Below the pieces are notes generated by a model. It saw only the letters and a program-made list of their open reading frames with translations, was not told the DNA's origin and did no database searches. DNA of 62,207 nucleotides, counting the filler, from Hausera hauseri (Eukaryota): assembly GCA_046269625.1 (NCBI GenBank). It is 8 parts of 8 records of this genome, joined end to end, with 100 filler letters (N's around TTAATTAATTAA, not from the genome) between each part and the next. Parts side by side here need not be neighbours in the genome. Positions count along the whole stretch, not along the records: positions 18,555 to 28,775 come from JBJURY010221074.1; 7 more parts are not named here. One strand, written 5' to 3'. A program made the position numbers and the translations under genes. Of this stretch, positions 2,538-54,999 are shown in pieces; the stretch's first letter is position 1, and each line of letters starts with the position of its first letter.

Positions 2538-2755
2538 CATGCGACCGCGGATGCGGAAGTGTATGTGGAGGTGGATATAAGTTGAGGAAGGTTGCAGGGT
2601 CCCAACGAGAGGTACCGTAAAGCCTTGGTGTGTGAGGTAAAAGTCAGGTGGCGAAGAAAAATGGAGATGACGTTGTAAATAGCCGCAGTGTTTAAGTGTG
2701 TTAATGCGGCTGTGTAAATATGTTTATTATTTAAAAAAAAGAAGAGGGAATACGG
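2538..2755 (-). pseudogene. Ubiquitin-like domain upstream of Gag, copy 1
   Basis: PYSLFFFLNNKHIYT, then after one frameshift YLQRHL...DFYLTHQGFTVPLVGTLQPSSTYIHLHIHFRIRG(R)M; homologous to the copy 2 domain. Confidence 0.7.
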
Positions 2756-2924
2756 AGAGGTCGTGTAGCCATGGGCGTGTCGTGGGGCGTCAGCGAACGG
2801 TGCCGCCTGACCCAATGGTATACGGTGGGCGGCCGGGACTTCGGCCTCGTCGCGGAAAATCGCAAACGCCGGGGTAGCCGAGTTCTTTGCATGCAATGTT
2901 GCTCCATCGGTCACTTTCAAATCT

Positions 2925-9436: not shown

Positions 9437-9536
9437 NNNNNNNNNNNNNNNNNNNNNNNNNNNNNNNNNNNNNNNNNNNNTTAATTAATTAANNNNNNNN
9501 NNNNNNNNNNNNNNNNNNNNNNNNNNNNNNNNNNNN
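9437..9536. other. Artificial contig spacer
   Basis: Same linker. Confidence 0.97.
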
Positions 9537-12500
9537 AGTTTTTCTGTTAAAAGCTGGATTGCTTCCCACCAATGCTTCACACATGGACTTCCTCATCGAT
9601 TCAGGAGCTGCCTTTTCGTTCCTTCCCTTGTCCTTCACTCCTACATCCACTATAGTTTCTTCTCCAACGCTTTTCTCTGCCGGTGGTCAACCGTTGCACA
9701 TCGCAGGTACCACGGAACTGATTTTCACATTCGCCAAATTGCCAAATAAGTTTGCCTGGAATTTTCATGTGGCTAATATTAAATCCCTTACAATCGGCTC
9801 AGATTTTCTTGCCGCGCATGATCTGCTAGTTGACTGCAAGTATCGCTGTCTGCTGCGCAGAAGCTACGTCGTGGATAATAACAAATATCTAACAAACAGC
9901 CCAGTAGAAACTCCGTTGTTTTCGGCTGTCAACTCGCGTGTGAATTTGAAAACTTGATTATCGTCTAATAACGGTGCATTTAGTACTTCATCCATTTCAT
10001 CCATCACACCAAACGTATCTAAGTCGGTTTTAAAACAACCGAGTAAACGGTGCGTTGATGGTGGCAGTTACGGTTGTTCTTCGCCAATACCGTTAACTGT
10101 CGCTTCTGATAATATGTCTCAATCATTTTCGTCGCTGGATTCCAATCTCAAATCTTATATCACAACTTCTTGTTTCCGCACACTTAAAAAGGACGTCAAC
10201 TTCAAGCCGCTTTCTACAACTTATCGCCATATAGTCATGAAACACCAAAGACCTATCAAACAAAAGGTCAGACCACTATCACCCATTAGGCGAAAAGCCA
10301 TTGAACCAGAGTTCAATGAACTCGAAAAGGCTACCATTATTCGAAGATCAAAGTTACCATGGGCTTCCCAATTGCATGTAGTAACAAAGAAAGATGGCAC
10401 TTACAGACCATGTTGTGACAATCGACAGTTGAACAATCGACCAGCCCTGAATGCTTACCCTTTACCTCTGATAAAGGACATCCTGCATAACCTAACCAAT
10501 ACTAATACTTACTCCACAATTGATTTGCATAAAGCTTATCATCAAATTCCGGTTGCACCTGATGATATTCCAAAAACTGCCCTTAATTCTCCATTTGGCC
10601 TCTATGAATTGGTATTTGGTTTACGTAGTGATTCCCAAACTTTTCAACGACACATTGATACCGGCCTGTCAGGCCTTGACTTTGCTCATCTATACACTGA
10701 TGACATATTAGTTGCCTCCACATATGTTAAACAAGATCAAGAACACCTCCGTATTATCTTTCACAGACTACATCACAGCAATTTTCAAGTCAATTTTTCC
10801 AAGTGTCATTTCTTTCAAAAATGTGTTAATTTCTTAGGCCACGTGAGCACTTCTCACGGCCACTCTCCACAACCGGATCGACTACAACAGTTGAAAAAAA
10901 TAACGCTATCAACGACTACTACGAATATGAGGAGTTTCTTAGGCACGCTCCAATTCATCCACAAATACCTACCGCATTGTTCTGAGCTTACGGCACCTTT
11001 CGCACATCTATTATCCGGAAAAAAGAGGCAGTTAATCCACTGGTCTCCTGATTTAGTCACCAAATTCGATCACCTACGCGAAGGCCTAAAAACCGTCGAA
11101 ATACTAGCCCATCCAAAGCCCAAAGCAGATCTTATACTTACCACGGATGCCTCTACCACAGCTACCGGTGTAGTACTGCATCAAACCTCTAATGGCCTCG
11201 ACGAACCATTAAAATTTTACTCCAGAAAACTCACACAACCCGAAAGCCGTTACTCTACCTTTGACCGTGAGTTACTCGCCATAGTTCTGGCAGTAAAACA
11301 TTTGAAACACTTACTTCTCTCTCGTCCATTTGTTATTCAAACTGACCACAAACCTCTCTTGCATATCATATCTTTAAAACAACCATCACCGAGGCAAGAA
11401 GGACACATATCATACTTGTCTACATTCAGTTTTGTTTTACAGTACATCTTAGGCATAGACAATTTGGCAGAAGATTTTCTATGAGGTCGGTTGGCTCCAT
11501 TACAATTGAGCCGATTTTCTCATCCGCAGCATTAAAGGCAAATCAACTATCCGCTCACTTCCTTAGCCTTTTCAAATCCTTCGAAATCATTGATATGTCG
11601 AATTCCGGTAATAAAAATATTATTCTAACTCCACATTTACAAAAGCCAGCCTTCCTTCATACGCATTCACTCCATCACCCAGGCTCGAAAGCAACCTTTC
11701 GCCTGCATCAACGTCATGCAGTTTGGCCATCAATGCGCAAAGATGTACAGGGTTGGATTAAGGAATGCGTAGACTGTCAAAAATAAAAAATCAACAAACA
11801 CATCAAACCGCAGCTTTATCATTTCCCCTGTATATTACGTTTTCATACGGTTCATCTTGATCTCGTTGGTCCTTTACCTTATGACAACAGATATCAATAT
11901 ATCCTTACTATGATGGATCGTGCTTCTCGCTGGCCTGAAGCCGTTCCTCTTCGTTCAACGAAATCTGTTTCGGTAGCCGACGTCTTCATAAAAATCTGAA
12001 TCAGCCGTTTAGGTTCCCCACGTAATATAATAACGGATCAAGGTCCGAAATTTGAATAGAAACTCTTCAAAGCACTTGCTAAACGCTTGGAGATATCCCA
12101 TTTCCATACTACACCATATCATCCTCAAACAAATGGCCTCCTTGAAAGGTTTCATCGAACAATGAAAATCTCTTTAAAAATCTTGGCTGACAATCATAGT
12201 AATTGTACGTCTATTCTACCATTTGTTCTACTAGGGTGGCGCAACACAGCCTCAACCACTACCAGTTGTGCTCCAGCCGAGGCACACTTTGGGACTCCAG
12301 TTCGGGCTTTATTTGAACTTTCTGATCTTGGCGACAACCCCATAGACGACAACATTCGTGCAGCACAGTCTGACTTCGTCGAGGTCAGCTCAGACTCGTT
12401 CTTTCGTCTCTTTAACAACAAAAAATTGTATATTCCGAAGGATTTATACTCCGCCAAGTTTGTGTGGCTGAAGGATCAATCGCCTTCGGGTTTTAGACCT

Positions 12501-13030
12501 TAATATGTTGGCCCATACAAACTGTTGAATCTCTCATCTCATACAGCTATCATTTTGCGCAAAGATAAACCTTACAACGTTCACATTTTAAATTTGAAGG
12601 CAGTTTTATTCATTGATGACTATCCAGATGCCAATTCTACCTCCAACTCCAACTCAATTCCTACTCCTTCCGATTTTCTAAATTATTTTGCGCCGTTGCA
12701 GCAGTCACTGTTTTGTCAAACTCAATCATCATCATGTCAACCATCCATCTCGCCTCCCTCTCCGTCATCATGTTCACTACTTTCTTCACCTCCATTACTT
12801 ACGTCGACTGTTTCATCACCTTCAATTGCATCGCCTTTTTTGCTTGATTCATTTTCTTCATCACCCTCATAAGCTTCATCACAACCAATACCGCACATTG
12901 AACCAGCTAATCTCACAAAACTTCCACCACAAAATACCACTCAACAGCCCAGAACAAATCAATCGAGTAAGACACGCAGAGTGACATTTAGTGCCTACAG
13001 CAAAGAAAAGTTCTTTGATGGTACACAACA
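9537..13030 (+). mobile_element. pol: Gypsy pol (PR-RT-RNaseH-IN-GPY/F), decayed; same family as copy 1
   Basis: FLIDSGA; YPLP, IDLHKAYHQI, YTDD; LTTDAS, DRELLA, TDHKPL; HHPG..CVDCQK, HLDLVGP, TDQG, NGLLERFH; YVGPYKL. Confidence 0.95.
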
Positions 13031-16387: not shown

Positions 16388-16615
16388 CCATATCCCTTAT
16401 CCCTGTTTGTCTTTTCCAATAATATACACCTGTATACTTTCAGTGTGACAAACAGAGAGACTTTACATTGTCTTTACAGACATTTATCCCTTTTGCTTCA
16501 CACCTCGGATTTTTATTTATCGCATCATGGCTCTATCCTTAACGTCTATGACTCGCTTTCTTATTTTTCTTTCCCAATCATCCATCTCACTCTCCACTTC
16601 CGTCTACGGGATGGA
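16388..16615 (+). CDS. Ubiquitin-like domain upstream of Gag, copy 2 (within ORF 16370-16639)
   Basis: LFVFSNNIHLYTFSVTNRETLHCLYRHL...DFYLSHHGSILNVYDSLSYFSFPIIHLTLHFRLRDG matches the ubiquitin/FUBI pattern (...LIFAGKQLEDGRTLSDY...TLHLVLRLRGG). Confidence 0.75.
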
Positions 16616-17668
16616 TCGGACCCCGATATATTATGCTGAAAATTTCACTAAGACCAGATCTGGTCGTCGTCCTGCTGACCTTACACCATCTGCCTCTCCT
16701 AATCTTTCTTGTACAGACTTCTTCCTGGACAAAACTAATTCGAGTCGCACCTGGCTACAATTCCATTTGCAGTGGCTTAAAGCCAATCACATAACAGATT
16801 CTTTCTTTCATGCTAATAGCTTGTTGCTTCTTCCAGCAAATATCAAACAGCAAATCAATAATCTTGCCGATATACTCACCTCTTCAAATCAATATGACAT
16901 GCTCTATGAATCAGTCCTACATATTACCGACCCTTCCATTGACAGCACAATACAAAAAACTTTAATGAACATGCTATCGGAACTCAAAAGCCGTCTGATT
17001 TCCTTAAAACCGCAATTTCTTAACTGGGTTCCTTAGGCGTCACTCCTACAAATAATGCCGATCTTCGTCGGTATTTTCTTCCTTACTCACCTCTATCAGA
17101 GAGTTACTTACTGTCGTAGACGATTCAACGACACTCGAGAAACTCGCCTTACTGGCAGATAGAAGTTTCGACATCTCACAATCAAATAGCTCACAACCAG
17201 TAGCTGCAGCAATCGCTCACACGCCATCACACACAGATAGCACTTTATTTTCACAACAACTGCATATAATGCATAAACAATTCGACACACGTCAACATAC
17301 AGTTTCTACAATTACAGCTCAACTTAGTGATTTATGTGTGCCTCGAAGAAGTGAAAAACGTGTTTCGCGCAATCGTAGCCTTTCCAGGCATTCCTTTCGA
17401 TGCAAATCTCGAGATGGAAGAATAATTTGCTTTTATCATAACAAATTCCACAGAAACGCAAGAAAATGTCTTTTGGGCTATCGGTTTTACGACAAACTTT
17501 ATGCAGTAGACAGTCCAATCTGCATTTATCACACAAAGTATCAGTCCACGGCTAGGTCGTGTGTGCTATGATGCAAATATTATAAAAGTAATTCTAGTTT
17601 TTCTCCATCTTCTTCGCCTCCCCGCTCTTATCATTCCTCTTCTATTTCCCAACAAACAAAAAAACTAA
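16611..17668 (+). pseudogene. gag: Gag of copy 2 with two CHCC knuckles, ending at the slippery site
   Basis: SCTDFFLD...WLKANHITD; CFYHNKFHRNARKC and CIYHTKYQSTARSC; AAAAAAC-TAA at 17659-17668. Confidence 0.82.
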
Positions 17669-20644: not shown

Positions 20645-21905
20645 CTGGAGGATTAGGAAATCCTGTCCACGTACTGACGGTCTTTATATTCTGATGGATA
20701 ATTTCCACCTTTTGTAAAATGCAATTAAACCCGTCATACGTCGGACCGTAAATAGTGCTTACATGAAATTGTGATTCGTTGTGCAACTCTAAAGAATTCA
20801 ACATTGCCAAATACGCCCAACGGCACGGGTTTCGCGTGATCAAACACGATGCAATTGAATGAATTGTAAACACTGTCATTGATAACCTAACGGAAACCTT
20901 CCAATTTACTATCGACTTTAAATTCATTATTAACATCATCATGGTGTAAATGATGTTCGTCCATTTCACTGTCATAATTAATGGAGCCTGTACTGGCAAA
21001 CTCGTTGTACTTTGTCGGTAAACAAAATTCGGGTGGAATTTTTTGTGTATGGCACGCAACAATACCCGCCGTGTTTAACGGATTCATAAGATCTATGCTT
21101 CGTTTACCAAAGATTTTGGTTGCCAATGTAAAAGCACCATGCACGAAAAATCGGCCGGGCTCGGCAATTAGCTTTATGTTACTTTCTTCCGGAAAATACG
21201 TGTCGAGAATAACGTAAAATTTCTGACACATTTTCGAATTCGGCCTGTTTGCTAATATAATTACAAATACTACTCAAACCCGGAAAACCACCGCCAATGT
21301 CAAGGAGGTAAGGACTGAACCCTATATCTCGAGCCAGTGCAATTATCTTAGCACAATACATTGCCGTTTCGGGAAATGCATCAATTTCTTTGCAACCACT
21401 ACCAACATGAAAGCTAAAACCAACGACATCCATTGAAAGATCTTTAGCTCTTTTTAATAAAAACGAAACTTCTTGAGGTTCAACGCCAAATTTGTTTCCA
21501 ATAACACAACTAGCGTGATACGTTCGTTGGGGGGATAATTTTAACACTAATTTTGCCGATGGCCATTCAGCTACAAGCTTAATCAATCCACTCTCTGTGT
21601 CAAATGTTGTCACACTTACACCCGCACGATGGGCATGATGAATATCTTTTTTGAATTTAAATGGGTTCGCATACATGATCTTCTTTGACGCCGCAACGTA
21701 ATTCATAAATACAGCTTTGATGACTTTCTTTATTTTATCTCGACTAGCGCAATCAAAACCAACTCCCAGTTTTCCTAAAATAGATATGATTTTCGTATCT
21801 GGTTGACATTTAACGGCGTAGAATGGTTGAACTCGCGGCAAGAGTGTGTTCCATCGAAGGAATGGGTCCACGATACTTCATAAGTTGACTTGGTAAAAAG
21901 CAGTA
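20645..21905 (-). pseudogene. ODC1: Ornithine decarboxylase, near full length, frameshifted
   Basis: PFYAVKC, GFDCAS, SFHVGSGC, LDIGGGFPG, IAEPGRFF, YGPTYDG, TWTGF. Confidence 0.92.
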
Positions 21906-22660: not shown

Positions 22661-25600
22661 TCATCGAATTCAGACGATACATTGGTCATTTCAATATTTT
22701 GTCCCTCTTTCTGTTGAGATCACAATGCAGACTTTGTAATCGAAGCAATTCTCTCTCCAGCACACATGTTCCCCATAATTACCGTTCTCTTTACGTACTT
22801 TGTGTACATTGCCGTTTTCTATTGTTGCTGGTATTTTCTGTTTCCCATCAATTTCTCGATATACTCTGTCGTTAACAACTTCCAGACTGTTGATTTTCGA
22901 TTGCAACTCAATACACTTGTTATTCATTTGTTCTTCGACGAATACATGGGAAACACATTTTTAGCAGTGTTTTTTAGAAATGATGTTTGCAGCACACTCG
23001 TTGCCTATTAAAAACGACATGAACGAGTGTCGGTATTGACACTGTGGGTTTGATCCCCACCTGTTTTGGTGCGGCGTTTACGCTACGTGCAACCAGGCGT
23101 TCGCTGTTTGGTTACGGTAGTATTTCAATTAAGTCGAGGTATCTTAGATGCACTCCTGCTGCGACTCGATACCGGTGCGGCAGGTGTTTGGTTGCGTATT
23201 ATCGTACGTTCCGTTTCCGGAAGTACGGGCGTTGGAATAATGTGTTTCAGTACGGACAAGAATCGGGTCATATACTACGGGAGTGTCCATATTGAATGGA
23301 TCAATTTTGTCGTAGTTTTCTCGAAGCTTGACTACTTCTGACATGCTTGTTACGTCTTGGTGGGTAGGATCTTCCGTATCGGAATTATGATAGCCGAATG
23401 CAGGTTTTGTGTTCGACAAGTAGACTATGTGTTCATCATTGCCGCGCAATATTATGGCGTTGTGCTCAGTGATCTATATGAGCTTGTAGGGGCCCGTGTA
23501 GTATGGTTCAAAACCGTGTCTTTCTTGGCTTTTGGGCCAGACAAAGGACGCATCTTGCAGATTCTTGGGCATGATTGTTTTTTTGTAATTGTTATGGAGT
23601 GCAGGGTTCGTGTCTATTGACAGGAAATGCTGCCGAGCTTGGTTGAGAGCAGGAATGGAAGTTACTTCCTCATTGCTCATCATATCTTGTGGGAATGTGA
23701 GGTGGTAATTAAATAGTAGTTGTGCCGGAGAGACATCAGTGCTAGTGTTGGGAGTGTTTCTTTACCCTAATAACACAATGGGTAATGCATCCAGCCAGTT
23801 CTTGTCATCGTGACATAGGATTCGTAGGGATGATTTGAGTGTACGATGAAATCTTTCAATCAAGCCATTCTCCTGTGGATGGTAGGGCGATGTATATATA
23901 TGCTTTTACCCAAGCAATTTGATTAATTGGTTAAACATGGCTTATTCGAATTGGGTCCCTTGATCTGTTATAATGTTTTTAGGTACTCCAAACCGAGAAA
24001 TCCATGTACTTAGCAGTATAGCCACAACGCTTTGCGTTGTTATTTGGAGAATTGAAATGGCTTCGGGCCATCTTGTTTTCCGGTCGAAAATGGTTAGGAT
24101 GTACTGATATCTGTTACATTCGGGAAGTGGTTCTACTATATACATGTAGATGGTTTCAAAACTTGATCCAGTAGGATAGTGTGGTATTGGAAGTTGTATT
24201 GTCTTGTTGACTTTGTACTTTTGGCAAAGTGAACATTCTTTTGTCCACCGCTTTATGTCGCTGAGTATGCGAGGCCAACAAACTCTACTGCTTAAAAGCC
24301 GTGCTGTGGCTTTTGATTCAGGGTGATGGATGTTGTGAATAGTGTCAAACGCCTGTTTCCGTAGGTTTGCTGCCAGAATTAGGCGTGGACAGCCATTGAG
24401 GATGGTATTGTAGTGTAGTGACTGTTTTAAAGAACGTAACATCGCCTTCATGTGGAGGGTTCGATTGGAGAACCAGTTATGTGTTTTATCTGGGATGAGA
24501 ATTCCGTAAGAAATATGTCGCTCTTGACGAGGCGATGGGTTTTTCATACTCATCATGTGAATGAATGGTTTGGGATCCGTGTGGATTGTAAACACATTTC
24601 CTTGCAGGAAATATCTGAAGTGTTTGACACTAATAATTATGTCTAGTAACTCTCGGTCGAAAGTTGAGTAGCGTTGCTCAGCCGAATTGAATTTGTGGGA
24701 AAAGAATACAATTGGAGCATTTTTGTCATCTATTGACTGGGCAAGTATGGCGCCTGCAGCAATTGTTGATGCATCTGTTGTTAAGATGAACGGTGCATTT
24801 CATTTAGGATAGTGCATTGTAGGCATGTGAAAAAGCGCCATTTTTGCATTGGCAAATGCCTGTTTAGCCTCATCCGTCCAGTTTACCTGAGATTTCTTGG
24901 GTCCTTGGCTTAGAGCAGATAGAGGTGACAGGATTTCCGAGCAATGCGGAATGTAGCGATGGCAGTAATTGATCGTTCCAAGGAAGCTGCGAAGTCCAGT
25001 CACTGTGAATGGCTTCAGTATTTATTTGATGGATTCTAGTCGCTCAGGAAGTGGACTCTGACCATGTGGTGTTAACCGAAGTCCGAGAAATACGGCTTCA
25101 GTTTTACAGAATGAACATTTGTTTATGTTTAACTGTAGGTTTTTTTCCTTCAAGCTATAAAACACATGTTTGAGATGTGTTTTTTGAGTCGCTTCATCGG
25201 GTGATGCAATCAATATATCATCTATATATGGAATTGCATAATGCATGTCGATGGGGACTTGGTCTATTTGGCGTTGGAATGTATGACTTGCATTCTGTAA
25301 GCCGAAAGGCATGCAAAGATACTCGAGCAAACCAAAAGGCGTTATTACGACCGTTATTAGAATGTCTTCGGTAGCCACTGGGATCTGGTGGTATGCCCTT
25401 TCCAGATCGATTGTGCTAAATATTGCTGCACCATGTAGGCAATGTAATATGTCTGTTACCAACGGTGTTGGGTATGAATCGTGGATGGTGACGTTATTTA
25501 ACATTCTATAGTCACCACAAGGTCGGTATAATCTGTCCTTTTTGAGAACCATGTGCAATGGTGATGCTCACTGTGTTGTAGAGCGGCGTATAATGCCTGT

Positions 25601-26268
25601 TTCTTCGAGGTGTCCAAATTTGGATTCCACGGCTGTTCGCTTGATAGGGTCAAACTCCCTTCGGGGTTGCCGAATCGGCCGGTTACATAATGTGACGAGA
25701 AAGTGTGATGTTTTCACCTCTTCTTGTGTTGGTTGTGCTGAGCGTTTCAACATGTTAGGTTATTGCGCTTGCAGAAATGGAGCGATGTCAATGAGATTTG
25801 CGATTTTGATGCCCGTGACAGCGTTTATAGTCAGTGAGAATGAGGATGGAGTTAATATATCGCCCCCACTGGTGAGTTGTTGATTTTGGCAATCAACTGT
25901 GAGATCGTAGTTATCTAGGAAGTCGGAACCAAGGATCGGTTGCATGACATTAGCAAATATGAATGTCCAAGCGTATGGTCGGCCTTGTATGTGAAATTGT
26001 AGGTACAATGTACCTGTGGTTGCTATGGGCGTGCCATTGGCAACTATGAGCAATGCATGCAAGACCAGAGTAGGTCTAGCGTATGCGCTAGGTATCAGCG
26101 ATAAAGCTGCACCAGTGTCGATTAAAAAATCGAGTTGTTTCGAGATGTCAGAGTTTAGTGGCTCCGCCTCGACAGTGAAAATAGCGTCGACAATGCGTTC
26201 GCTCTTTGTGTACGGCAGTTGTGGTGATTGGGTTTCCAGTCAATGTGCCGTTGGTCGTCTAGGCCCAT

Positions 26269-27184
26269 TTAGTTTTTTTATGTCTTGTGAAATTTGCAGC
26301 CGGGTCGACAGATTTTTGCATCTGGACCGAAATGATTGTGATAAATGCAAGTGTTTTGCATTTTTATACTTGCGGATGGCTTTTTGAATTGACAGCCATG
26401 GCAACATTTATAGGCGGATTCGCCGAATCGCCTATGGAAATGGCAAAATTTGGATATTTTGCCTTTTTTTCTCTTAGGGGATTGGCGCCGAGATGACGGT
26501 TTGTCCCTGGCTGGCAGATTATTGTGCGTTACAAGTGCATGCAGTGCGGCAATAATGGTGTTCAGCTGATTTTTCTGGGTCGCCGTGACAAAGTGGATGT
26601 TTTCGGTTGGTGCGGATTCTACGGTGTTTTTAGTGCACTCGTATATTTTGTCGGCTTTTGATGCCATATCGTCCAAAGTGGTATCGGGCGGTAATACCAC
26701 AAGTGCCGTTTGAATTTGGTTTAGGCAAGCTACTCAGGAAGTAGCGCCGTAGTATGTCCTGGTTGCTGTGGAGGTCCAATTCAGAATTGCTCAAATCTGA
26801 GCGTAACTTTTGAAGCAGAGCAGAAGGTTTCATATTCCCTGTCTGTCGCTTGGTGAAAACCAGACTGAACTGGTCTTGTTGGGATGGCAGGTATGCTTTG
26901 CATATTGCTGCTTTGATTTTGTCAAACGGCTTTTCATTTGACAGTAACGTGTCCAGATCCGTTATTGTTGCGAGCGTTGTTGGCTGCAGGTACTGTATTA
27001 GTGTTAACGCCTTGTTTAGTTGGCCGGTGATGCTGTATTGAGTATCCCATGTTTCAAACACATAGAATCACTTTAGTGGAGTTCCGTCCAAATCTATGAA
27101 TAAGGTGAGACATTCTAATTTGGGAGGTTTGGCCGGTGCTGATGATGCAGTTCCGGCTTTTTTGTCGGGCGTGTAAGTGTAGAC
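26269..27184 (-). pseudogene. gag: Gag of copy 3
   Basis: ECLTLFID...MKPSALLQKL...YFLSSLP...ASKADKI; CHFHRRFGESAYKCCHGC and CIYHNHFGPDAKICRPGC. Confidence 0.87.
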
Positions 27185-27398
27185 ACCTCCTTTTAGTCTG
27201 GGAGTGGCGAGTAGTGCCGCGTTGTTTGTAAGGAAATTATCCGAAATTGGACTATCACATAGACGCAAAATTTTCTCGTTGTGAAAAAATGTGGTACGGA
27301 TATGAAATGGCGAGCTGTTGTAGCATTGCCTTAATAAACATGTGTGTCAAGAAACGATACGCTTTCATGTTGCGTAATCCGCGTATGAAAAATGGCAT
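27185..27398 (-). pseudogene. Ubiquitin-like domain ending RLKGG, in frame with the Gag of copy 3
   Basis: MPFFIRGLRNMKAYRFLTHMFIKAMLQQLAISYP, one frameshift, TTFFHNEKILRLCDSPISDNFLTNNAALLATPRLKGG|VYTY; about 71 codons. Confidence 0.78.
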
Positions 27399-28432
27399 CA
27401 CTTGCGGTTTTGTTGTATCATCGGAATTGTGTGCCGATTTGACTGTGTTGGCGCATGAAACTTAGATTCGATATTTAGGCTTAGACTTTTGTTAAGTACC
27501 ACTCGTTGTGATTGCCTGAATAATAGCCGCGCTGAAGATATTGTCAGCGGGTGTTGTGTGATCACATTTGGTGATATGAATGAGTGTGCCGGATTGTTTT
27601 CGCCGGCATTACTCTGAATTTTAGCCTGACTGTTGCCATCTAATATGTGCGGTGTTTCAGCCGGATTGTTTTCAATGGCTGAGTTTATCGAAATGTACAA
27701 ACCAGTATGTACGGTTCTGTGCGAAAGGGACGTGTGTGCGGTATTCGTTGCCACCATTTTAGGAGTTTTTGCCTTATTGAAGGCCTTAGTATTGACCCAC
27801 AACATGGTGGCGGCAAAACAATAAACAAAAGCGGACACGAAACGATGAAGGAAGAAAGCTGAGTAATGGACACAATGTTTATTGTTATCAACATCACCAC
27901 CTGCCGAATCCATCGAAGCGTATGAAACGTCCGTCCAGGACAGCGCTGGGTTACTTTGGAGATTTCGACGTGCGCAGGTCGCAGCATCGTCCGAGCTTGA
28001 GTCAGGCAGCATGGGTTTTCTTGGTGACGGGTCCAAACGGCGTTTGCGACGTAGTTTTGGCGAATCGTCGGGGCTCGAAGTCCCTACATGCAGCTGTTCG
28101 TAATTTCGACGTATTGGGATTAACAGGCTCTCCGAGGGAGCCACGAATTCGTAAAGGCGGTCGGTTGCCGCCATCAGTCTCTCGAATACTGGCAGGAAAA
28201 CGGACGAGTCGAAGAGACGTCGATTTTCCCCGTCCTCGTAGAACCGATAAAGCGTTCCAACAGGTAGAGAGTAAGGGTCGTCTCGCTCCAGCCCGACTAA
28301 GTGTCGTATGAAGCGGCTCTGTGCAGCAGCTCCCGTATCGTCAGAAAGTCCGAGTAGGACCGGTATGGGACTCGTTTGTCGGTGTTGCGACGTCTTTTTC
28401 CACGGGAGGCGGCGTCTCGCCGGGTTGGGCAT
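27398..28432 (-). CDS. 344-aa ORF of unknown function upstream of UBL-Gag (probably composite)
   Basis: Long open frame with basic KLRRKRR, a hydrophobic stretch and a repeated ENNPA; no recognisable domain. Confidence 0.3.
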   Translation of the reverse strand: MPNPARRRLPWKKTSQHRQTSPIPVLLGLSDDTGAAAQSRFIRHLVGLERDDPYSLPVGTLYRFYEDGENRRLFDSSVFLPVFERLMAATDRLYEFVAPSESLLIPIRRNYEQLHVGTSSPDDSPKLRRKRRLDPSPRKPMLPDSSSDDAATCARRNLQSNPALSWTDVSYASMDSAGGDVDNNKHCVHYSAFFLHRFVSAFVYCFAATMLWVNTKAFNKAKTPKMVATNTAHTSLSHRTVHTGLYISINSAIENNPAETPHILDGNSQAKIQSNAGENNPAHSFISPNVITQHPLTISSARLLFRQSQRVVLNKSLSLNIESKFHAPTQSNRHTIPMIQQNRK

Positions 28433-28775
28433 GGCTGCTCTGAATTAACGGTTGAGCTCGGACTGTTATTTGGGCTCTGTGTTTCCATCGGTTTGGGTTG
28501 TGACCGTTTGGGGATCCGGTACCCTGACGTCAAGTTAACGACTTCATTGATTTCTGGTTTGGAGGTAATTGATGTGTCCGGTTTCCGTGTAATAGGTTCG
28601 CCGATTTTTGGCTTGGCGATAGGCGTCGCAGAAATGATTGATTTCTCCGTCATCCGGCTCTTTCCAACTGAATTCGATTTTTAGGACATCATGTATGAAC
28701 GCTTTTGAATAATTCTGTCTTTTCTTAAACTGTAGATTCAAACAAACGAGTTTAAATCCACAGATTATTTTATTT

Positions 28776-28875: not shown

Positions 28876-30260
28876 TAAGTCTTGTAAATCTTTTAAATGC
28901 TGTTGGAAATTTGGTGATGCTATTATTACGTCATCGATATATACCATCGCGTGCGGAGCGTCTAACAGTAGTTCTGTCCTCCTCTGGAATGTTTGCGGCC
29001 CATTCTTCAATCCAAATGGCATTCTGTTAAACTCCCATAATCATTCACCGATTGAGAATTTTGTCATGTGTGTCTTCTTCTTTCACTTGTACTTGCCATA
29101 AGTCCTTTTCTAGATCGATAGTCGTAAGTATTGTCGATCCGTGTAACTTGTCTAGTATTTCGTCAGTTCTTGGTAACGGATATGTATCGTTCAGTGCTCT
29201 ATAATCTGTACAAAATCTCCGTCCCATCTTTTTTTTGACCATTACTACTGGAGCTCTCAATGAGGAGAAACTTGGTCGAATTATCTTGTTTTCTCTCATT
29301 TCTTTTATTATTTTTCGCACTTCCTGCTTTTTATCATACGTTAGTCAATATGGCCTTTTCTTTATTGGCTTATCTTGACCCTTCTTTAATTTAATGGTGT
29401 GTTGTATTATATTCATTGTACTCAAATCATAAACAATTTGTGCAAATCGACAGTTATTTCTCTCTAACAGTTCGATTAACATCTTCTTCTGTTCCTTAGT
29501 CAGAATCTCGCATTTCTGTAATTTCTCCTCCCAATTGATATTGGTTGTTTTGATTCATCCTCTGACTCTGTTTCCTTCTTTAGTTTCTATGCCATTATTT
29601 TTTCTATTTTGTCTACCTCTGAAATTACCGAGTTAGTTTCTCCTTTTATTGTTTTTTCAATAATCATTGCTTTTTCCTATCTGGTATATTTTCGTAATTT
29701 TTTTCTTTGTTTGCGGCGTTACAAATTTTTAAGTGGATTTTTCAATCCCTTACTTCGACTACATGAGGGGCGACAAGAACTTCGTATTTCTACATAACTT
29801 GTGGAAATGGTTCAAAATGTATAACCTCGATTAGTAGTTTATTGTCTATTTTCGGGGAACCACGATTTCAGAACGTGGTGGGATTATGATATCTTTTATT
29901 AATGAGACCGTTACTTCATTTTTATCTTCATCAAATGTCTTGAGTTGGCCTGTTCTTACATTTATGTAGTTATTTTCTAATTGGTTGAATATATCACATC
30001 CGATTAAGATTTCATTGGTTAAATTCTCTGCTATCCTTATGGTGTGCTTTAAAGTTTGGTCACCGATTTTAATCTCAGCATCCAGGTCCATCTTGATTTC
30101 TTCTTCCGTACCGAATGCTCCGACGTTTGCCAGCGTGGTTGCTGGTTCCCTTAATTTTTCTTTAATTCTTTTGGTAGTTGGCTCTTTCCCATTATTGTGG
30201 TCGTGGATCCTGTATCCAATAAAGCCATCAACGAATATCTATTTACCTTTATTTCTACCT
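28876..30260 (-). mobile_element. pol: Gypsy protease plus reverse transcriptase (different family), cut at the contig edge
   Basis: ALLDTGS; ILIGCDI; RFCTDYRALN, YPLP, MPFGLKN, YIDD. Confidence 0.9.
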
Positions 30261-30559
30261 CCGGTCTTATGGGTGACTGGCGTGCGTTTTTATCGTGTGT
30301 TTTATATGTAGGTTCACTCTCGTAAGGTGTTGGATTTTCGTCAAGACACTGTTTCATATACTGTACTTGTTGCGTGTGATACAGTCCTACATATCGAGGA
30401 GCAGAAAGGTTCACTGAAAACTGTTTGTTATATAACTGTCCGTGGTATTTATCTATAGGATTTAATTGAGGTAAGTCAGCTACAAATCTTTGTCTGTACT
30501 TAGGTTGTCGTAACTTCAGTGCTAACTGCTTAATTTTAGATATTTGGTCACCCCATAGT

Positions 30560-32502
30560 TTCCTATTTAATTTATCGTATTTGCTGTTTTTATCATTTAG
30601 CGCAATATACGGCGAATCTCTGTCGTCTTTCTTCTGTAGTACCTTCTTGTTCCATTGAACATCGTGATTTGCAAGGAAGCAAATTGCTACTGCGGGTATT
30701 ACCGCTATCAGAATTTTCCATGAGCAACTTACTGCTGCATGTATTCCATATGCCTTACCAAGCGCAGTGAATACTGTCCGCAAAGCGTTAATAATAAAAT
30801 ATATCGCTAGGAAACCAGAAGCTGCTTGGCCGAAGTATAAGGACTTTCCCCACATTTTCTCCATAATACTCCGTGTTACTTTCTTTAAATAATTTTTGCC
30901 CATTAAATTTCCCCATTGTGGTGATCCTTCACCATCCCACATTACTCTCCTGGTCAATTCTGTTATAACTCTCTGCCTCTGCTGGGGAAACAGCAACATT
31001 CGTTGATAATCTTCTAGATTCTGTTGCGTATAAATTCCTTCTTGGGATATTCCTGTTAACGTTTCAAACCTCTGATTCCTTTGCAAATTGATCAAGCTTA
31101 ATGTCTCTGGTTTAGCTACTGTTTCTCTTTTTTGGCATTCTGGTTCATTTATCATTATTTATTTTAAACATTGGTAACATATTGAAAGTACAATTGTATA
31201 ACGGGGTGGGCTTCCTATTAACATCTAACAGTATTCTTGTCACCGGCATTACGTATCTTGGTTCTGCATGATAAACTACGGGCAATTCCGTTGTGCATTC
31301 CGCCGTGGACCTAATTGATACTTCTACCTTTTTACACTCTATGGTTATTAGTACCTCGCCCATCACTCTTCCAATTATTCCGTCACCGAAGGGCATCACT
31401 GGCGCTACCATATCCGGATTTGTTATTACCAGGGCCATTTTATTTCGTATTATTTCATAATTTGGCTTACATTCATTCATTACTATTTCTCGGTATAATC
31501 ATCTTATCTCTTTCCTTACATAGTTGATTAAGAAGTCGATCCTGTTATCAAAGTATTGTGTTAATTTTATATTCTTTTTATCTATTTTTGTCCTTGCGCC
31601 CGGTATTTCTTTTGTTGACAAGAAAATACTATTATAATTAGTTCTAGATATTTCTTCGTTACATTTATTTACCGCTCGAGTGATTTTAAATTGCATCATT
31701 TCCTCCGGGTTTTCCGAGTAAACAGTTGTAGCTACTTCCGTCATCTTAACTTCCTTCGTTACTTCTTTATACGTCGCCATTTCCTTCTCAGCCGTTTTTC
31801 CTACTGTCTTGTTAAATTTTCCTTCTTTCAACAGCATTAACTGACACTTGCAGATATTTCCGATGTCATTTTTGTCTCTCCGGTGTCACATTCGCCATTA
31901 TCATATTCACACTCACTCATGGTTGTCATTAATTTTGTTTGTGAGTCAAACAGTGCTTCGTATTCTTTCAATTGAACCTAGTAGTCCTCGATGGCTACCG
32001 TTCTGGGGACGATGGTGCCTCCCACATCAGTTTACTCCAACATATGTTCCTTCCATTGTCTTGTCAATTATCCCTGCCCTAAAGATTCTAGTGTACTTTA
32101 TTCTATACCAAACTGCAGGTATGTGTGAATTTTGAATGGTTATTATGCAGATCTTAAAAGCGTCCTGACACTCTGCTCATGACATTATTATTGGTTCAAA
32201 GGTGTTGTGGGCTCAATTATGGCCGAATTTCCGGAATAATAAGCGCAGTTAAAAAGCAAAAATGATTTCTTTACATAACATTTCCTAACTTTCACCTTTA
32301 TAAATTCGGATTCTTGATAAACCCAATACGTGAGGCCACTTGTCGTTGTTAGCTGTTTTGGGTCGGCTTTTGGACACTTCTGTAAATCAACTAGAGAATA
32401 CTTTTGTCCTTCGCTAGGTTGCGCACAATCATAGGCCACTGTGCTTACGGCTTTTGGCATTAATAATGACGTTATTAAAAGGATCTGAAAGATCACCATC
32501 AT
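30560..32502 (-). pseudogene. env: Chuvirus-like (class III type) envelope glycoprotein with internal signal peptide and C-terminal TM segments
   Basis: MMVIFQILLITSLLMPKAVST|VAYDC; GEVLITIECKKVEV.IR...CTTELPV...P.TRIL; GIYTQ..LEDY..MLLFP; hydrophobic FGQAASGFLAIYFII. Confidence 0.78.
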
Positions 32503-33077
32503 GGAAATACCGGTTATACCATGTCTACAAGTGTTTGGTGGCGGCAAGATGGGCGTGTCGATCAGTCTTCCTCGTTCTTCCGGCCTTGTTATAATGGTCA
32601 TTAGACTGGTCAACAATCCGAGTCTACATTGGACTGAATTTCCTAACTTATCCTTCAGAATTTTGACGGCTGACTTTATATTTTGTTCAATTTCTTCTAA
32701 GCTTTGAGTCTGATGGTTAATTACTATTATTTTATATAATAGGTAAGACATAGCAGTTTGTGCTTTCTCCCATGTGATCCCTGTTGTGAACATCTTTTCT
32801 AAAATATCTAATTCGTGTAATTTGTTCACTCGTACTTCATCGAGATTCTCATATAATTGCCTACTTATTCGCAACATATTATTACGTAAAATTTGAAATA
32901 GTTCATCTGAAATTATTAGTCGCATATTAAAGGAAGCGAATGATATGTGTAACTTAGCCAGTAGAGTTCTTAATAATGGGTCTATATCCACCCATTCTGG
33001 TATACCGTTTGTTTCTGCCAATAACCGACGTCTCACTATTTCCTCATTTCTATCTTTCCTATTACGGATGTCGCTTA

Positions 33078-33177
33078 NNNNNNNNNNNNNNNNNNNNNNN
33101 NNNNNNNNNNNNNNNNNNNNNTTAATTAATTAANNNNNNNNNNNNNNNNNNNNNNNNNNNNNNNNNNNNNNNNNNNN
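33078..33177. other. Artificial contig spacer
   Basis: Same linker. Confidence 0.97.
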
Positions 33178-36458: not shown

Positions 36459-36747
36459 ATTTATCTGATTGTACCGTTACTTATTTCATTTTCATATAGT
36501 TTGTTCAAAAAATAATAAATTCGTCGTTGGAAAATGTACAGGAGGAAAGAGTGTTCAGAATTCCAGAAAATGCAGTACAAGAATATGATGTTCGAAGAAG
36601 GAAGCATGGATCACAAATAACATAGTTGTTAGTGATATTTTTTATCATTTATTTTAAGGAAAGATTTCATCAGTCCAAAATATTCCGTGTTTAATTTTTA
36701 ATTTATAGACGTATATGTGTAAAGAATTAGAATCAAACTCAATGTAC

Positions 36748-39138
36748 CTGGAATACTTGAACATCGAAGAGAGATGCTACGGGTCGATGATCGGATGTTC
36801 TTAGTTCGGCTCTGTTGTAAATCAGTTGTTTACAAAGGTTTTCCGGATTTGCCGATGGCATATTTACTTTCCAAAGGATTCTATCGGTCCAAGCTGGAAC
36901 TCGACATTTTTCACTGGTATCATAATCATCACAAAACAAATCGTATTTGTACGTAGGAGCAAAGAAAATTGACGCTTCATTAAAATCCTTAAAAACATTT
37001 CCTTGTTGTTTCTGAACTAGTAGTTGATCTGTTTCATGGAGTGCCGTCCAGTTTCTATCCGATATCAATGGTTTAACATCATTATTCGACATATCAATCC
37101 GATAATTGAAATCCCCACACCAAAATATGTAATCATGGCAATTAATGGATCGATCTTCCGTGAATCGCAACTGTTTACAGATATCGGAAAAATCCTCATT
37201 TCGTTCTTTAACATTCGACTGACCGGCAGCAAAATGCGAACAGACAAAACAGAAACTCGTATTGAAAAGCCGAAATCGAATTGCAACACCACCTTTATTT
37301 CCAACAGTTCCTTTAAAGCCGGTCTTCACGGACGAAACGGATACTTCGGTAATAAACGGTGCGAATTTCGCTCGAACGTAAACAAACAGGCAAACACCGA
37401 CAAGTTGAATACTGCTCACTAAAATGTACTCGGTTGTTTTCGAAATATTTGTCAACAAAAATTGTCCCCATTGATGTTGATTAAAGGATTTCGTTGAAAC
37501 GATATTGCTCGCAGTCAAGTCGACAATTTCTTCGAATCCGACCGCAAAGATATCCGTCGTTATGTCGAAATTCCCCGTCGGATCCGTCAATGTGTCGGGA
37601 TTGGTTTCAGAACTGATTGCCGGTAAATCTAATAGCCAGTCGGTGACTGATTGGTGTTTGTGAGCAATGCTGTGGAAATTCTTCCCTCCGTTGACGTTCC
37701 AAGTCCCGACAAAAACCCGTAGGTTATGAACGATTGTGTATTGTAGATAATCGTACATTGCCGATCGGAGGAAATTCTCGTCCATGTCGTAAATCATTTC
37801 CGGCATCAGTTGTTTGACACGGACAAGATCTTCTTTGACCAGCGCATTGGGCCGCAGTAAATTGTAAATGGTGACCTGTTTGATGGGATCGGAAAAATTC
37901 GCTTGATACGTTCGTTTGACGGCTTTTTGGGCGTCAATTAATTTCGAACTGGTACCCAAAGCACCGCTGCCGGCATAAACGTAACTAACATTGTCACCGT
38001 TGGATTTCCACATCGTTTTGAAATTCTCATAGACCGTTAATAATTTCGACTTTTGATTGGGTATCATTATGTAGAATAACTTCTCCAGGATCATCTCCAT
38101 CCCGACGAAAGTCTGCACGGAATTCGTCCGATCCAGACAGTCGACGCAATTAACCCGCAAAACGCCGAATTGCCGCTGAACAATTTCCCCATTGACGACC
38201 CACGTAAAATGGGATTCATCGAGAAATTCCTGCAGTTCCGTTCTCAGTTTTTCGATATTATTCGACGAACGACTGGGCATTTCTTTGTGGTAATCAAACG
38301 AATAGAATTTCACATTGGACCGTTGGGATGAACATTCGTGATTGGTCTTATACCGATGACTCAACATCCGTTCGCCTTCTTTGCTGCCGAGTAGATTGAC
38401 GATGTGTACGCGGTTGTATTCGTCGTGCAATTTGGCAAAATGTTCTTCGTAAGCCAACGCTGACAGTTCAGCGGTGCGAGAGAATTTAACTTTATGGGAA
38501 CCTATTTGAATGCCCGGCTGTTCCCAGAACAATGGGACCGATCCTCGAATTTGAATGAATGACGTAATGACACTATTGTCGTTTTGTATAAAGCACATTT
38601 CAGTTTCAACGAAATTCGCTACATTACCCAAATCATCAATTCCGCGGGCTTGAAATCTCGTGCCGACTCGACTGCAGCTGATTCGAGAAATCAGGCAAAT
38701 TTTAATGTGTCCACTTGACGAATAAACGGTGTTTGCGATGAAGCTTCCACAGAGTATAGTGTTGAACCAGTCGGGAGATATCTCATATTTCCGAAATTTC
38801 GAGAGCAAATACCTATTCCAAATAAATCTCCAATCAAATTCTCTTCCTGAATAAGAGTTCTGGATATTTGTGCTGATATCCACTGATTTCCCTTTCTGAC
38901 CTTTTGCAAAATAAAACGATCCAGATTCCAGTAACTTATGAACATTGACAGTATGAGCATCTTCATTCGTCTGTTGACCGCTCATGTTAAAAAAGAGAAC
39001 TTGAGTTATTTTGAATATATCCGTTTCATTTAATTTTGTAATCCATTCCACGTTCGTAACAATTACCAAATATCGAGTTCCATCACCGGATCGATAAATA
39101 CCGAGATTAGCGAAAAAATCATGAATTCTGCTGTAATT
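36748..39138 (-). CDS. SYNJ1: Synaptojanin (Sac1 plus inositol 5-phosphatase domains), one 2.4-kb exon, 5'-truncated by the contig edge
   Basis: Uninterrupted frame; RGSVPLFWEQ, RVNCVDCLDRTN (CX5RT), GTWNVNGG, GNKGG, WCGDFNYRI, PTYKYD, PAWTDRILW, SDHRPV; probable donor CAG|GTACAT at about 36747. Confidence 0.95.
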
Positions 39139-39139
39139 T

Positions 39140-39239
39140 NNNNNNNNNNNNNNNNNNNNNNNNNNNNNNNNNNNNNNNNNNNNTTAATTAATTAANNNNN
39201 NNNNNNNNNNNNNNNNNNNNNNNNNNNNNNNNNNNNNNN
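39140..39239. other. Artificial contig spacer
   Basis: Same linker. Confidence 0.97.
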
Positions 39240-39867: not shown

Positions 39868-40020
39868 GTCGGAGGACACGGCAAAAAGCACGAGTCGGGG
39901 GACACGCTTATAAAATCACGAGTCGGGGGACACGCTAAAAAAAGCACGAGTCGGGGGACACGCTAAAAAAAGCACGAGTCGGAGGACACGCTAGAAAATG
40001 CACGAGTCGGAGGACACGTT
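39868..40020. repeat. Tandem repeat, about 28-29-bp unit (CACGAGTCGGRGGACACG plus A-tract), about 6 copies
   Basis: Directly visible; two more degenerate units at 39679-39724. Confidence 0.9.
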
Positions 40021-41121
40021 AATAAACGTCAGCTTTTTTTAAAAAAATGCAACGATTTTCTTATATTTTACACATAGATAAGTGTTAAATTTGAAAAAGG
40101 AAAAAAAATCCAATTTTAATTATATTATTTAGCATCATAAAAAGTAATAATCATTGGAATTTAAGTGGTTATCTGTACCATTGCAGTAACCATTTTTCGT
40201 TTATAACATATCCCCTTGCGTAATCAATATTTTTAAATGCACAATGTTTCCGTCATAGGATGTTAATTATTTAAAATTTATGAAATAATTAATTTCATTA
40301 TTGTATAACCATAAAAGCTTGTTTTCAAAAGATTCATTTAAAAAAAAACATATTTTCTTCTAAATATTTCCAAAGTCATAAGACATTAACGTTCTGTATA
40401 TCTGTGTTACTAAATAACGCCGTAATGTTAACGCACACCTGTTTCTGTGGCCACGACCGGTAAAAGGGTTAAATTGTCAATTTTGTGACTAGCTACTTTT
40501 ACTTCCTTATACAAGCGGGATTTCCATTTTGAGGTGGATACAACTGAAGGATTCAACTCTTAAACACTACCAACATATACTAATATTATAAGTATAACAG
40601 TATAAGTATGTTCTCTAGATTTGTTAATTTTAGTATAATTATGTTTAGCAGAAACAAAGATAAGGCAAGATATACCTAATGGGTATAATCAGTACAATTA
40701 CAAAAGGACTAACCGACTAGGCGTGTCCCACTGTTGCCATCAACTCACATTTAAATTCAAGATTTCATATTTTACATATTAAAAAAATACTAATAAATAA
40801 TGTTCTAATAACATAAAAATTATGCACAGCTAATTAAAGGCCTACGCTCGTACAACAGTTTTCTGCAAACTATGTGGATTTGTTAGACAACTTTTACAAT
40901 GGGGAAGAAGCCTAGTTCCCTTTGCACTCATATTAGACAAATGAAGTTATTTAGCTTTGCTCAATGATATACTTATTATTAATAACCTCGTAGTGAGCCC
41001 CCTAGAAAGTGCATGTGACACCTTTTGAAGTCGTTACCCTAATTTTGCCGACCGCTATCTTTATGACTCCCGTCATACACCATTACCTGACCTTTCTATA
41101 TTGTGTTTAACTAATTAAAAT

Positions 41122-43969: not shown

Positions 43970-44883
43970 GTTGTGTTTGAAGGGGTAACATTGTAGTAAA
44001 CGTTTTCTTATGTTTAATATTCACATTCCCTTGTGTCTACATTACAAATCTGTAAGACACATTATGCCCAATAAAACATGTTTTCAAGAAAGTCAGCATT
44101 CACAGTTTGGTTGCTATTGGCAGGGGGTAAGGGCAAAGCGTTAACGCATGTGGTCGCCACATCACCAGGGCTGCCAAATCACATGGGTTGCCTTAGCCAA
44201 GAGGCCACCAAATCATAAGAACCACTTGCAAGTAAAGCAACCTATCTGTTAATATGCACAGTGCAACCACGCACCTAGAACCGCCCCTACTGTTCATGTG
44301 ATAAAACTAGGATCCTACAACTTTGTAATATAATTTTAAAAAAGGGAGTAATATCACTGATAAGGTGTTATAGAGAACTGGGAGTTAAACAAAAAACAAC
44401 TACCTATGAACGATATGTAGATAAACAATGCTTTCTTCCTATTATATTATAGTTTGTTAAATGACAATGAGCTTGAAGTGTCACGGGTCAATAATTTCTG
44501 TAGGAACTCTAGGTTACTTCAAGTAAAGTTTTTTTCTGTAATTTCATTCCCTTTCTCCCCTTCCCTTCCCTTCCCACCCGCCTCCTATTTATTCTCTTCC
44601 ACCCTACCAAACATACACGCTCACGTCGCTTTACCCTGGAATGCAAAAAACTGTCTGGAGTAAAGTTTCTGATCCACGTAAACATAAAGCAAAACTCAGT
44701 ACTAGTTTGAGATCTGGTGTGAACTTTTGTTGTCTACCACTTCCTGATCAAGTAGCCATGTTTCAAAGACCCATCGCAGTTCCTACTCTTCACTTCAGAT
44801 ATTCACCGGAACCCCCATTAACTGTTACTGTGCTACTTAAGTAAGTGAAGATGTCCACGACTTGAACTTATTGTTCCTCCGGC

Positions 44884-45084
44884 CAGGGGCGGCGCGAGCT
44901 ATTCTGCCACCCTAGGCAAGAAAGCCCTTTGCCACCCCCTCCACGATATAATATGATTATATGCAGTGCTTATTATTATTATTTATTTTTTTTTTTGCAG
45001 TGCTTATTTTTTTCTTTTCACCGCCCCTATAAGCTGGCCGCCATAGCTGACTTCCTAGGCCGTCTATGTCTAGCGCCGTCTCTG
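44884..45084. mobile_element. MITE family CAGGGGCGGCGCGAGCTATTCTGCC (other copies about 46153-46319 and partial about 49219-49275)
   Basis: Three homologous copies with imperfect terminal inverted repeats. Confidence 0.65.
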
Positions 45085-48000: not shown

Positions 48001-48211
48001 TAAAATCACCCCTGAATGATTCCAGTACCAATACTTAAGTCTGTGTAAACATGTCTGTCGAAAGTGAAATTCATTCAACCGTTTCTGACTGCTTTGACCT
48101 GAAACAAAAGGTCACACCATACCCTGCATGTTGTTTAATCTTTCACAAGTTGGTCCACCAGCATTAAGAAAGTTGCCAATCCCTGTTGTAGATTTAGCGA
48201 AGTATTAATAA

Positions 48212-53757: not shown

Positions 53758-54999
53758 TAAAGGAATGGGGAAAGATAGAGATAATGTGATTTTTATGGAA
53801 CGCGTGGACCAAAATGTTAATTTCTTGCCGACATCGTTATACGACAAATTGTAACAGCCAAACCGAGTCTATAGATTATTAGATATATTGCGAAATCTAT
53901 AATAACAGTCACAATTTTTATACAATAATCTTTTTTGGAATTTTAGCTTTTTTACTGTTGATTCCACGTATATAAATAAAATGCATTTCTCTTGAACACA
54001 CCAAAGCGGCCTACTTTAGACAGTACTCTAACCTTGCTTTACGATCAGTACAAACAGTCGCATTTTTACTTTTCGAGAATGTGCAACATTAGCGACCCTT
54101 ACTTTTAATCGCTCAGTGAAATTATGAAAAATCACTGAGAAACACACATGTGGTTTAAAGAATGGCTGGAAGGGACCTTTGCATTCTTCAGTTTAAAGTT
54201 CTTTAGGATGCGGTCACATGTAGCAAGAAATCATTCTAATGTGAATGTGACCCGGAAGCTGAAACTTAAATAATAGGCCTTATACGTTACGTTTTTATTA
54301 GTTTTATATATATTTTACAATAAACAGAAAATTGTGGAGAAACAAGATACTGAAGCTTTAACAGTGCGGCTTGCGAGCTGTTTATTCTTTTGCAATGAGG
54401 TCCAACAACTGAAAGGCTTTCTTGTCACTGGCTCAGTATAAATTTTGGACTAGAATTTGCAAAGTAAAGAAGCGCAAATCTGTATATATATATTTTTTTT
54501 CAATTCTTTTTATATTTTATTAGTGACTGTTAAAATGTGCTAAGAATATGGCAACAATAAAATATAGGTTTGATGATGGCTTTCTAATATACTCGTATAC
54601 CTCTACGAAACGACTACATAATATAACAAGCGCTTTTATGTTTTATAGTACTGATAATTTTGAAAGACTTTTTCCGATTCTGTGCATAAGCAGGACTGAA
54701 TAAAAAAAAAATACAAGATAGTTTAATCCTTGAAGACTTTCGCGGTGGGTAGAAAGATCTCGGTTGAATTGGTTAGTCTGACCTGAAACCTAAGGTCACG
54801 GCCCTACCCCTTCTACCACAGCACGCACAAAATAATCAGCGCTATGCATTCAAGCTTAGAATCGGACCTAGCATTAACGGTGTGACAAGGGGTATGCGGG
54901 GCCGCACCAAGCATCAAGCAAAGGTACTCCGCGATCGGATATTTCTATGAAGGGTACGTGAAGTTGAAAAGGTTGGGAAACACTGCACTACGTCAATAA

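Follow-up and report, generated by a model that had tools for sequence, protein, structure and literature searches.

In the ubiquitin- and FUBI-ribosomal fusions (eL40, eS31, eS30) an N-terminal ubiquitin-fold unit is removed by processing after its terminal di-glycine (GG), and FUBI is, like the domain described here, diverged and not a normal modifier. The retrotransposon domain that we describe resembles these fusions in being a ubiquitin-fold unit that would be removed at GG. However, the ribosomal fusions are host housekeeping genes that start at the ubiquitin Met, whereas the present unit is internal in most cases and resides in a selfish element. The ubiquitin insertions of the pestiviruses BVDV Osloss, CP1 and CP Rit are cut by host ubiquitin C-terminal hydrolases, which leads to an authentic N-terminus, and such an insertion remains functional behind a foreign leader and with its start shortened, according to the available part of the source (PMC8310069). 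Both systems have a captured host ubiquitin in a polyprotein as a processing signal, with cleavage being proven there and predicted here. As far as that source goes, the insertions in this RNA virus are sporadic, consist of near-exact ubiquitin and precede NS3, whereas the domain described here is fixed, ancient, clade-wide and heavily diverged and is located before a retrotransposon capsid.

Among retrotransposons, a CHCC box together with a tRNA-Trp primer site defines CsRn1-like elements, and within the CsRn1 clade gag and pol may overlap with a -1 frameshift, be fused to each other or share a single frame, as stated in the available text of PMC2582038. Like CsRn1, PwRn1 and AgCR in that description, the element analyzed here has a CHCC box (CX2HX9CX3C), a DUF7041-like capsid, the order PR-RT-RH-IN, a -1 slippery gag/pol overlap and the corresponding RT grouping. 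It differs from them by the ubiquitin-derived domain and long leader ahead of the capsid, by a second CHCC box, and by a primer site of the Leu type where theirs is of the Trp type. Transposons with OTU and Ulp1 proteases, but not with ubiquitin itself, are reported in the part of PMC2836005 that is available, and no ubiquitin-Gag fusion in Ty3/gypsy was found in the searches made of the open-licence literature. The element, named copy 3, is decayed and belongs to a CsRn1-like Ty3/gypsy clade that carries a ubiquitin-derived, Gly-Gly-ended domain before the capsid protein. We assume, with a probability of about 0.7, that this domain is likely cut by host deubiquitinases, freeing the capsid protein from the leader.

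Reading frames and decay of copy 3

The window, i.e., the whole stretch of 62,207 nucleotides from Hausera hauseri that was analyzed, consists of eight contigs joined at 4280, 9437, 18455, 28776, 33078, 39140, and 57661 by seven identical linkers (44 N, TTAATTAATTAA, 44 N), and therefore any neighbourhood across the linkers is artificial. It contains three copies with a ubiquitin-derived domain (Table 1). Besides these, pieces of a Chuvirus-type (Monjiviricetes) fusion glycoprotein lie directly upstream of a retroviral-type protease (29846-33129, minus strand), and the ORF 30151-31158 comprises the C-terminal part of the glycoprotein together with the protease motif, in env-before-protease order. 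A synaptojanin-like gene (36739-39183, minus strand) is open over ~800 codons without an intron; its identity is 42-49% to every named animal listed and 64% to a single further protein, which suggests a fast-evolving, intron-poor animal host. Furthermore, there are an ornithine decarboxylase-like gene in two frames (20887-21877, minus strand), a 28-bp tandem array (39883-40022), a 21-bp degenerate array (54963-55237), and interspersed 40-170-bp repeats (44668-50726), which are probably non-autonomous elements.

Table 1. Features of the three copies, with positions along the window
Feature	Position	Strand	Basis
Copy 3, 348-codon open frame over probable 5' LTR/U5, primer-binding site and leader	27398..28444	-	P0003-leader homology ~27841 to 27600; terminal TGA overlaps ATG 27398
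Copy 3, AATAAA, putative LTR poly(A) signal	27878..27883	-	sequence
Copy 3, probable primer-binding site, ATG overlapping	27746..27756	-	P0003 has matching MVAAN 139 aa ahead of its domain
Copy 3, leader; P0003's reading shifts into the frame of 27398, stopped at 27494 and 27464 in copy 3	27401..27600	-	P0003 comparison
Copy 3, N-half of ubiquitin-derived domain (MPFFIRG...), frame of 27398	27282..27398	-	score 67 against P0003 domain, shuffle maximum 33; best match among 28 clade domains
Copy 3, frame break within domain, at T-run	27279..27290	-	frame comparison, run contigs, P0003
Copy 3, C-half of domain with RLKGG end (27199-27185), frame of 27397	27185..27277	-	score 67 against P0003, shuffle maximum 31
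Copy 3, low-complexity linker and capsid start; predicted post-cleavage N-terminus at 27184	27071..27184	-	7/9 polymorphic sites at third codon positions
Copy 3, premature TGA inside capsid-start motif	27068..27070	-	P0003 open here
Copy 3, capsid, DUF7041-like N-terminal part, up to second frame break near 26722	26723..27067	-	Pfam E 0.002; 83% capsid identity to P0003
Copy 3, Gag C-terminal part: two CHCC boxes (26445-26296), premature stop 26280-26278, slippery A-AAA-AAC 26278-26272 ahead of Gag stop	26269..26721	-	sequence
Copy 3, pol: protease 26239-25760, RT 25567-25022, RNase H and integrase 24799-23474; several stops	23474..26239	-	Pfam
Copy 1, ubiquitin-derived domain in two frames, with RIRGR as decayed tail, ~1 kb upstream of Gag (1485-578)	2541..2764	-	clade profile
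Copy 2, ubiquitin-derived domain with RLRDG as decayed tail; Gag 16674-17598	16412..16615	+	profile i-E 6e-9

Pfam gives the order PR-RT-RH-IN for copy 3, whose pol is in the -1 frame relative to Gag, with A-AAA-AAC preceding the Gag stop. The RT falls within a 19-row group (SH-aLRT 99) together with CsRn1-type loci, and the CX2HX9CX3C box is present twice in Gag. The primer site is presumably of the Leu-tRNA and not of the Trp type; an exact Trp-type site was detected on neither strand of the window, compared with 7 of 14 control loci. As copy 3 has two CHCC boxes but no Trp-type primer site, it is designated CsRn1-like rather than a strict CsRn1 member. No second LTR copy was found in the window. 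Another decayed pol is located at 9493-12872 on the plus strand, the RT of which is sister to that of copy 3 (SH-aLRT 87; pol copy at 9958) and the gag of which is removed by the contig start.

The stretch from ALLATPRLKGG over VYTYTPD to ECLTLFID (...ECLTLFIDLDGTPLK) occupies a single minus-strand frame, that of 27397, and the TGA as well as the following ORF 26630-27067 are in the identical frame, just as the sequence-only reading had proposed, except that it had given the ORF as 26630-27061. Its view that this stop is secondary and interrupts a frame read through it also holds, since the related protein P0003 is open there and the TGA is premature. MPFFIRGLRNMK, starting with ATG 27398, is in a frame different from that of RLKGG. 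Because of the break at the T-run, copy 3 keeps an intact tail only and not an intact domain: what can be maintained is a di-glycine in the Gag frame across the TGA, whereas the N-half belongs to another frame and an intact domain has to be given up. In P0003 the leader, a domain with a KLKGG end, the linker, the capsid and two CHCC boxes form one open frame, also over both frame breaks of copy 3.

Numerous relatives are present in the public runs X1 and X2, and no RNA run was among those listed, which has no bearing on expression. Contigs of X1 and X2 differ in length from the window near 27279 (X1: three contigs, 665 of 1509 depth; X2: one contig) and at 26723 (X1: 10 contigs), which coincides with the two frame breaks of copy 3. 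Both breaks and the TGA look like decay of this copy. Among the matches listed (40 of 52 rows), neither run shows a difference at 27186-27208, and at the second Gly of RLKGG the third base alone varies. In the X1 relatives, the polymorphic sites (15-85% share) are at the third codon position in seven of nine cases in the domain and likewise in the linker (P=0.008 each), counts that come from few contigs and from the 40 of 52 rows listed. The near-fixed differences from the window lack this bias (3/11, 0/7), as expected since copy 3 decays. The variation in the copy-3 subfamily is of the coding type. Run contigs of at least 80% likeness reach a summed depth in X1 of 93,109 over the capsid (26820-27015) versus 1,400 over the domain (27212-27407), a contrast that agrees with rapid divergence of the domain, depth not being copy number. 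Copy 3 itself is dead, and its value is that of a representative of the most diverged lineage.

Relatives of copy 3 and the donor of the domain

With the natural capsid ORF as query, phmmer produced 18 matches, comprising 15 Gags and three repeat proteins (P0004, P0009, P0017), the latter being left out, and a profile search with 8000 candidates scored added at least 26 clade members and at least 13 ordinary Gags. The clade members are ENA, JGI or Logan records, and the relatives are gene predictions read as protein only, of which P0010, P0019, and P0008 are spliced to host exons, so that their leader frames are provisional. Of the 39 Gags assigned to the clade, 11 begin in or just ahead of the capsid, and the 28 with sufficient upstream sequence carry GG without exception. 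The distance from GG to the capsid motif is 18-49 aa (25 rows measured). Within the tail, P5 is Arg in 24 and P4 is Leu or Ile in all 28 rows, and GG is followed by Ser (18), Thr (5), Gly (2), Asn (2) or Met (1), hence by Ser, Thr or Gly in 25 of 28. Together with the KLKGG of P0003 and the lack of any listed difference at 27186-27208, this agrees with the sequence-only reading, which had tied its claim to conservation of RLKGG in the subfamily. The domain is absent from all 17 ordinary CsRn1-type Gags and from all 42 RT-selected loci of a metagenome scan, and searches of viral contigs and prokaryote genome contigs yielded no related loci. The CHCC box is doubled in 23 of the 28 clade rows versus single in 16/16 controls, and 17 of the 28 Gags end in KN. 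Judged from these predicted proteins, the fusion of a GG-ended ubiquitin-derived domain to Gag is real and clade-wide.

Neither half of the copy-3 domain matches Pfam ubiquitin, an X-read of it has no ubiquitin match in Pfam or PDB, and a word-indexed homologue search with the domain at 118-378 aa gave 199 candidates but none at E<=1. Without a direct match, its identification depends on the relatives. Pfam ubiquitin matches 10 of the 28 clade domains, three of them above the curated cut-off, and the identity as ubiquitin/beta-grasp is clear by sequence for P0028, P0034, and P0019. P0028 and P0034 are nearly ubiquitin, the P0034 domain being identical to it at 56 of 75 positions (counted by eye). 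Both have Phe at position 8, lack Lys11 and Lys63, and keep Lys6, 27, 29, 33, and 48 as well as Ile44. The PDB matches listed for the clade profile are almost all ubiquitin, which leads, with a few ISG15/OASL rows. Since two relatives carry near-true ubiquitin and ubiquitin leads these matches, the donor can be identified as ubiquitin. FUBI, NEDD8 and SUMO were considered as donors and ruled out on the basis of these matches and of the 75% agreement of P0034 with ubiquitin.

The 23 diverged rows retain the core (Leu50 in 23, Leu43 in 17) and the tail (Arg72 in 19, Leu/Ile73 and GG in all 23), and Lys48 is present in 16. On the surface, Ile44 and Val70 are found in none, P0003 included among the rows without the patch, and Arg42 and Arg74 in only three and two rows, respectively. 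Due to the loss of the Ile44/Val70 patch and of Arg42/Arg74, the domain is not classified as a conjugatable modifier. The P0003 domain is the most diverged one; it has no Pfam match, reaches E 0.06 with a leave-one-out profile, and exceeds 40 shuffles in hhalign score only when the tail is included. Its AlphaFold model, the alignment of which had 32 rows with the near-ubiquitin rows among them, predicts a strand-helix-strand unit at 273-339 that matches ISG15, SUMO, and PB1 (Z 4.2-4.4, rmsd 2.6-3.3), and Foldseek with this model found nothing under E 0.001. The capsid of P0003 was modeled with a retroviral CA fold, with MLV CA at Z 9.7. Evidence for a predicted beta-grasp fold in the copy-3 lineage is modest and partly circular.

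For copies 1 and 2, Gag groups with P0010 and P0006 and the domain has its best match in P0010, whereas copy 3 goes with P0003 by Gag as well as by domain; the domain of copy 3 is strongly unlike the other two, as had been noticed from the sequence. The copy 2 domain has no Pfam or PDB match, and its atlas leads are all below 0.9, with two ubiquitin-like clusters at 0.85. In copy 1, the ~1 kb between domain and Gag (1555-2540) are probably a later insertion. A ubiquitin-like reading at 1655-1520 beside the copy 1 Gag was dropped, as the profile puts the domain at 2764-2541.

Translation start, proposed cleavage and competing readings

A Met near the start of the domain exists in only 3 of 25 rows, and the domain is internal in most relatives. 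A WCQK-type word stands in frame 52-133 aa ahead of the domain in 11 of 28 rows versus none in 160,314 control residues. Such a word is the translated Leu-tRNA primer site TGGTGTCAGAAG, as given in the available text of PMC8905726, and the clade rows show a Leu-type primer-binding site. Four of the 11 rows start at a similar Met ~60-85 residues further upstream (read by eye), which suggests that the frame begins in the LTR and stays open through indels. The final 63 codons of the 348-codon frame of copy 3 are off P0003's frame, and they would be open by chance with ~3%. As ATG 27398 occupies the ubiquitin Met1 position behind the overlapping stop, the copy-3 subfamily may have a start of its own or re-initiate there.

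According to the mechanism that we propose, translation would start ahead of the domain, and in one sub-lineage or more it would begin within the LTR and pass through the primer-binding site. The ubiquitin-derived domain would fold as a beta-grasp, a host USP/UCH-type enzyme would cut after GG, and the leader would be discarded. Gag would thereby gain a fixed N-terminus, mostly Ser, Thr or Gly, whatever the ribosome start. If the domain is kept solely as a cleavage substrate, it would drift fast. The retained fold and R-L-x-G-G, mostly with Ser, Thr or Gly next, fit such a putative cleavage cassette. The Ile44 surface is used by many deubiquitinases, and loss of the patch could weaken the binding to many of them, which is a point against cleavage. 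Moreover, since the Met is exactly at the ubiquitin Met1 position, removal of the leader may be needless in the copy-3 subfamily. A wider version, which we put forward tentatively and with slightly more doubt than confidence, is that the whole clade of animal LTR retrotransposons has no Gag start codon of its own, and that it would combine a start in the LTR, read-through of the primer-binding site, a capsid N-terminus made by deubiquitinases, and the replacement of an over-drifted domain by fresh host ubiquitin.

The evidence can also be read in other ways, beginning with the origin of the tail. The six frames of the window hold a single [RK]L[RK]GG, compared with 0.47 per shuffled window, and therefore the RLKGG motif by itself proves little and its position is what counts. 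That it arose by chance within a leader that is non-coding, as this expectation and the missing direct Pfam or PDB match of copy 3 might suggest, is nevertheless hardly credible, because a tail at the same place in P0003 and 27 further relatives, the third-codon-position bias of the variation and the near-true ubiquitin of two relatives speak against it; on the predicted proteins, P0003, the near-ubiquitin relatives and the 28/28 GG already contradict it. The sequence-only reading had left open whether the domain was acquired before the subfamily split or captured independently. For an independent capture by the copy-3 lineage, or one from a different donor (e.g., FUBI), speak the branch of this lineage, which is the longest in the domain tree (2.11) and placed without support, and the refilling that seems to occur elsewhere in the clade. 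P0028 and P0034 are off the curve of domain versus Gag identity: the domain of P0034 shares 25% identity with that of its nearest relative by Gag, to which its Gag is 75% identical, with a median of 43% for such pairs, and P0028 and P0034 as sisters in the Gag tree were rejected (p 0.029), whereas forcing the 16 diverged neighbours together without these two was not (p 0.075). In that part of the clade, a new host ubiquitin has probably taken over the slot one or more times. Against independent capture in the copy-3 lineage, however, all Gags bearing the domain are monophyletic (100/99 with nine outgroups and without the near-twins P0021-23; 98/92 with 22 outgroups and additionally without P0008, P0024, P0032, P0041, P0046, and copy 2), the doubled CHCC box is common to 23/28 rows, the domain position is identical, and domain identity follows Gag identity (rho 0.68, 300 non-independent pairs). 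The copy-3 lineage lies on this curve, with 10-23% domain identity at 25-31% Gag identity and a median of 19% for such pairs. Because of this position and the single Gag clade, an old shared acquisition is favoured; one capture would suffice for copies 1-3, and a separate one for copy 3 is unlikely.

As to the function, the domain might stay on Gag permanently as a folding aid, a matrix-replacing targeting module or a degradation signal, with GG as a leftover. The conserved hydrophobic core, Lys48 in 16/23 diverged rows and the loss of the Ile44 surface used by deubiquitinases would agree with this. However, GG is kept in 28/28 rows although the rest is down to ~19% identity, and a flexible tail (pLDDT <50 at 344-346 in the P0003 model) need not be retained by a permanent module. 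The Ile44 patch is moreover what proteasome and ESCRT receptors read, and its loss in 23/23 rows counts against a permanent module as well, which is therefore rather improbable. Alternatively, the released domain might itself be the active product, a ubiquitin mimic with a free GG end that either becomes attached to host proteins or serves as a decoy for host ubiquitin enzymes, e.g., blunting silencing or Gag degradation. This is very improbable: Arg42, Ile44, Val70, and Arg74 are needed for E1 activation, and few or none of the other 23 rows have them, even if the two near-ubiquitin relatives keep an almost complete ubiquitin with Ile44, Arg42, Arg72, Arg74, and Lys48. The domain is also usually attached to an unconserved leader, although transposons do carry OTU and Ulp1 ubiquitin-pathway domains, as described in the available part of PMC2836005. 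Release of the capsid protein by host deubiquitinases remains the preferred reading.

Meaning for the Ty3/gypsy elements

If host deubiquitinases mature Gag, the assembly of these retrotransposons would depend on a host protease, a control point not described for Ty3/gypsy in the open-licence literature searched. The clade provides a natural series from a 75%-identical ubiquitin to a barely recognizable fold with GG fixed, which shows the minimal need of a host enzyme for cutting a ubiquitin-like fusion. Furthermore, it offers a test of whether one host gene has been captured repeatedly at a single site.
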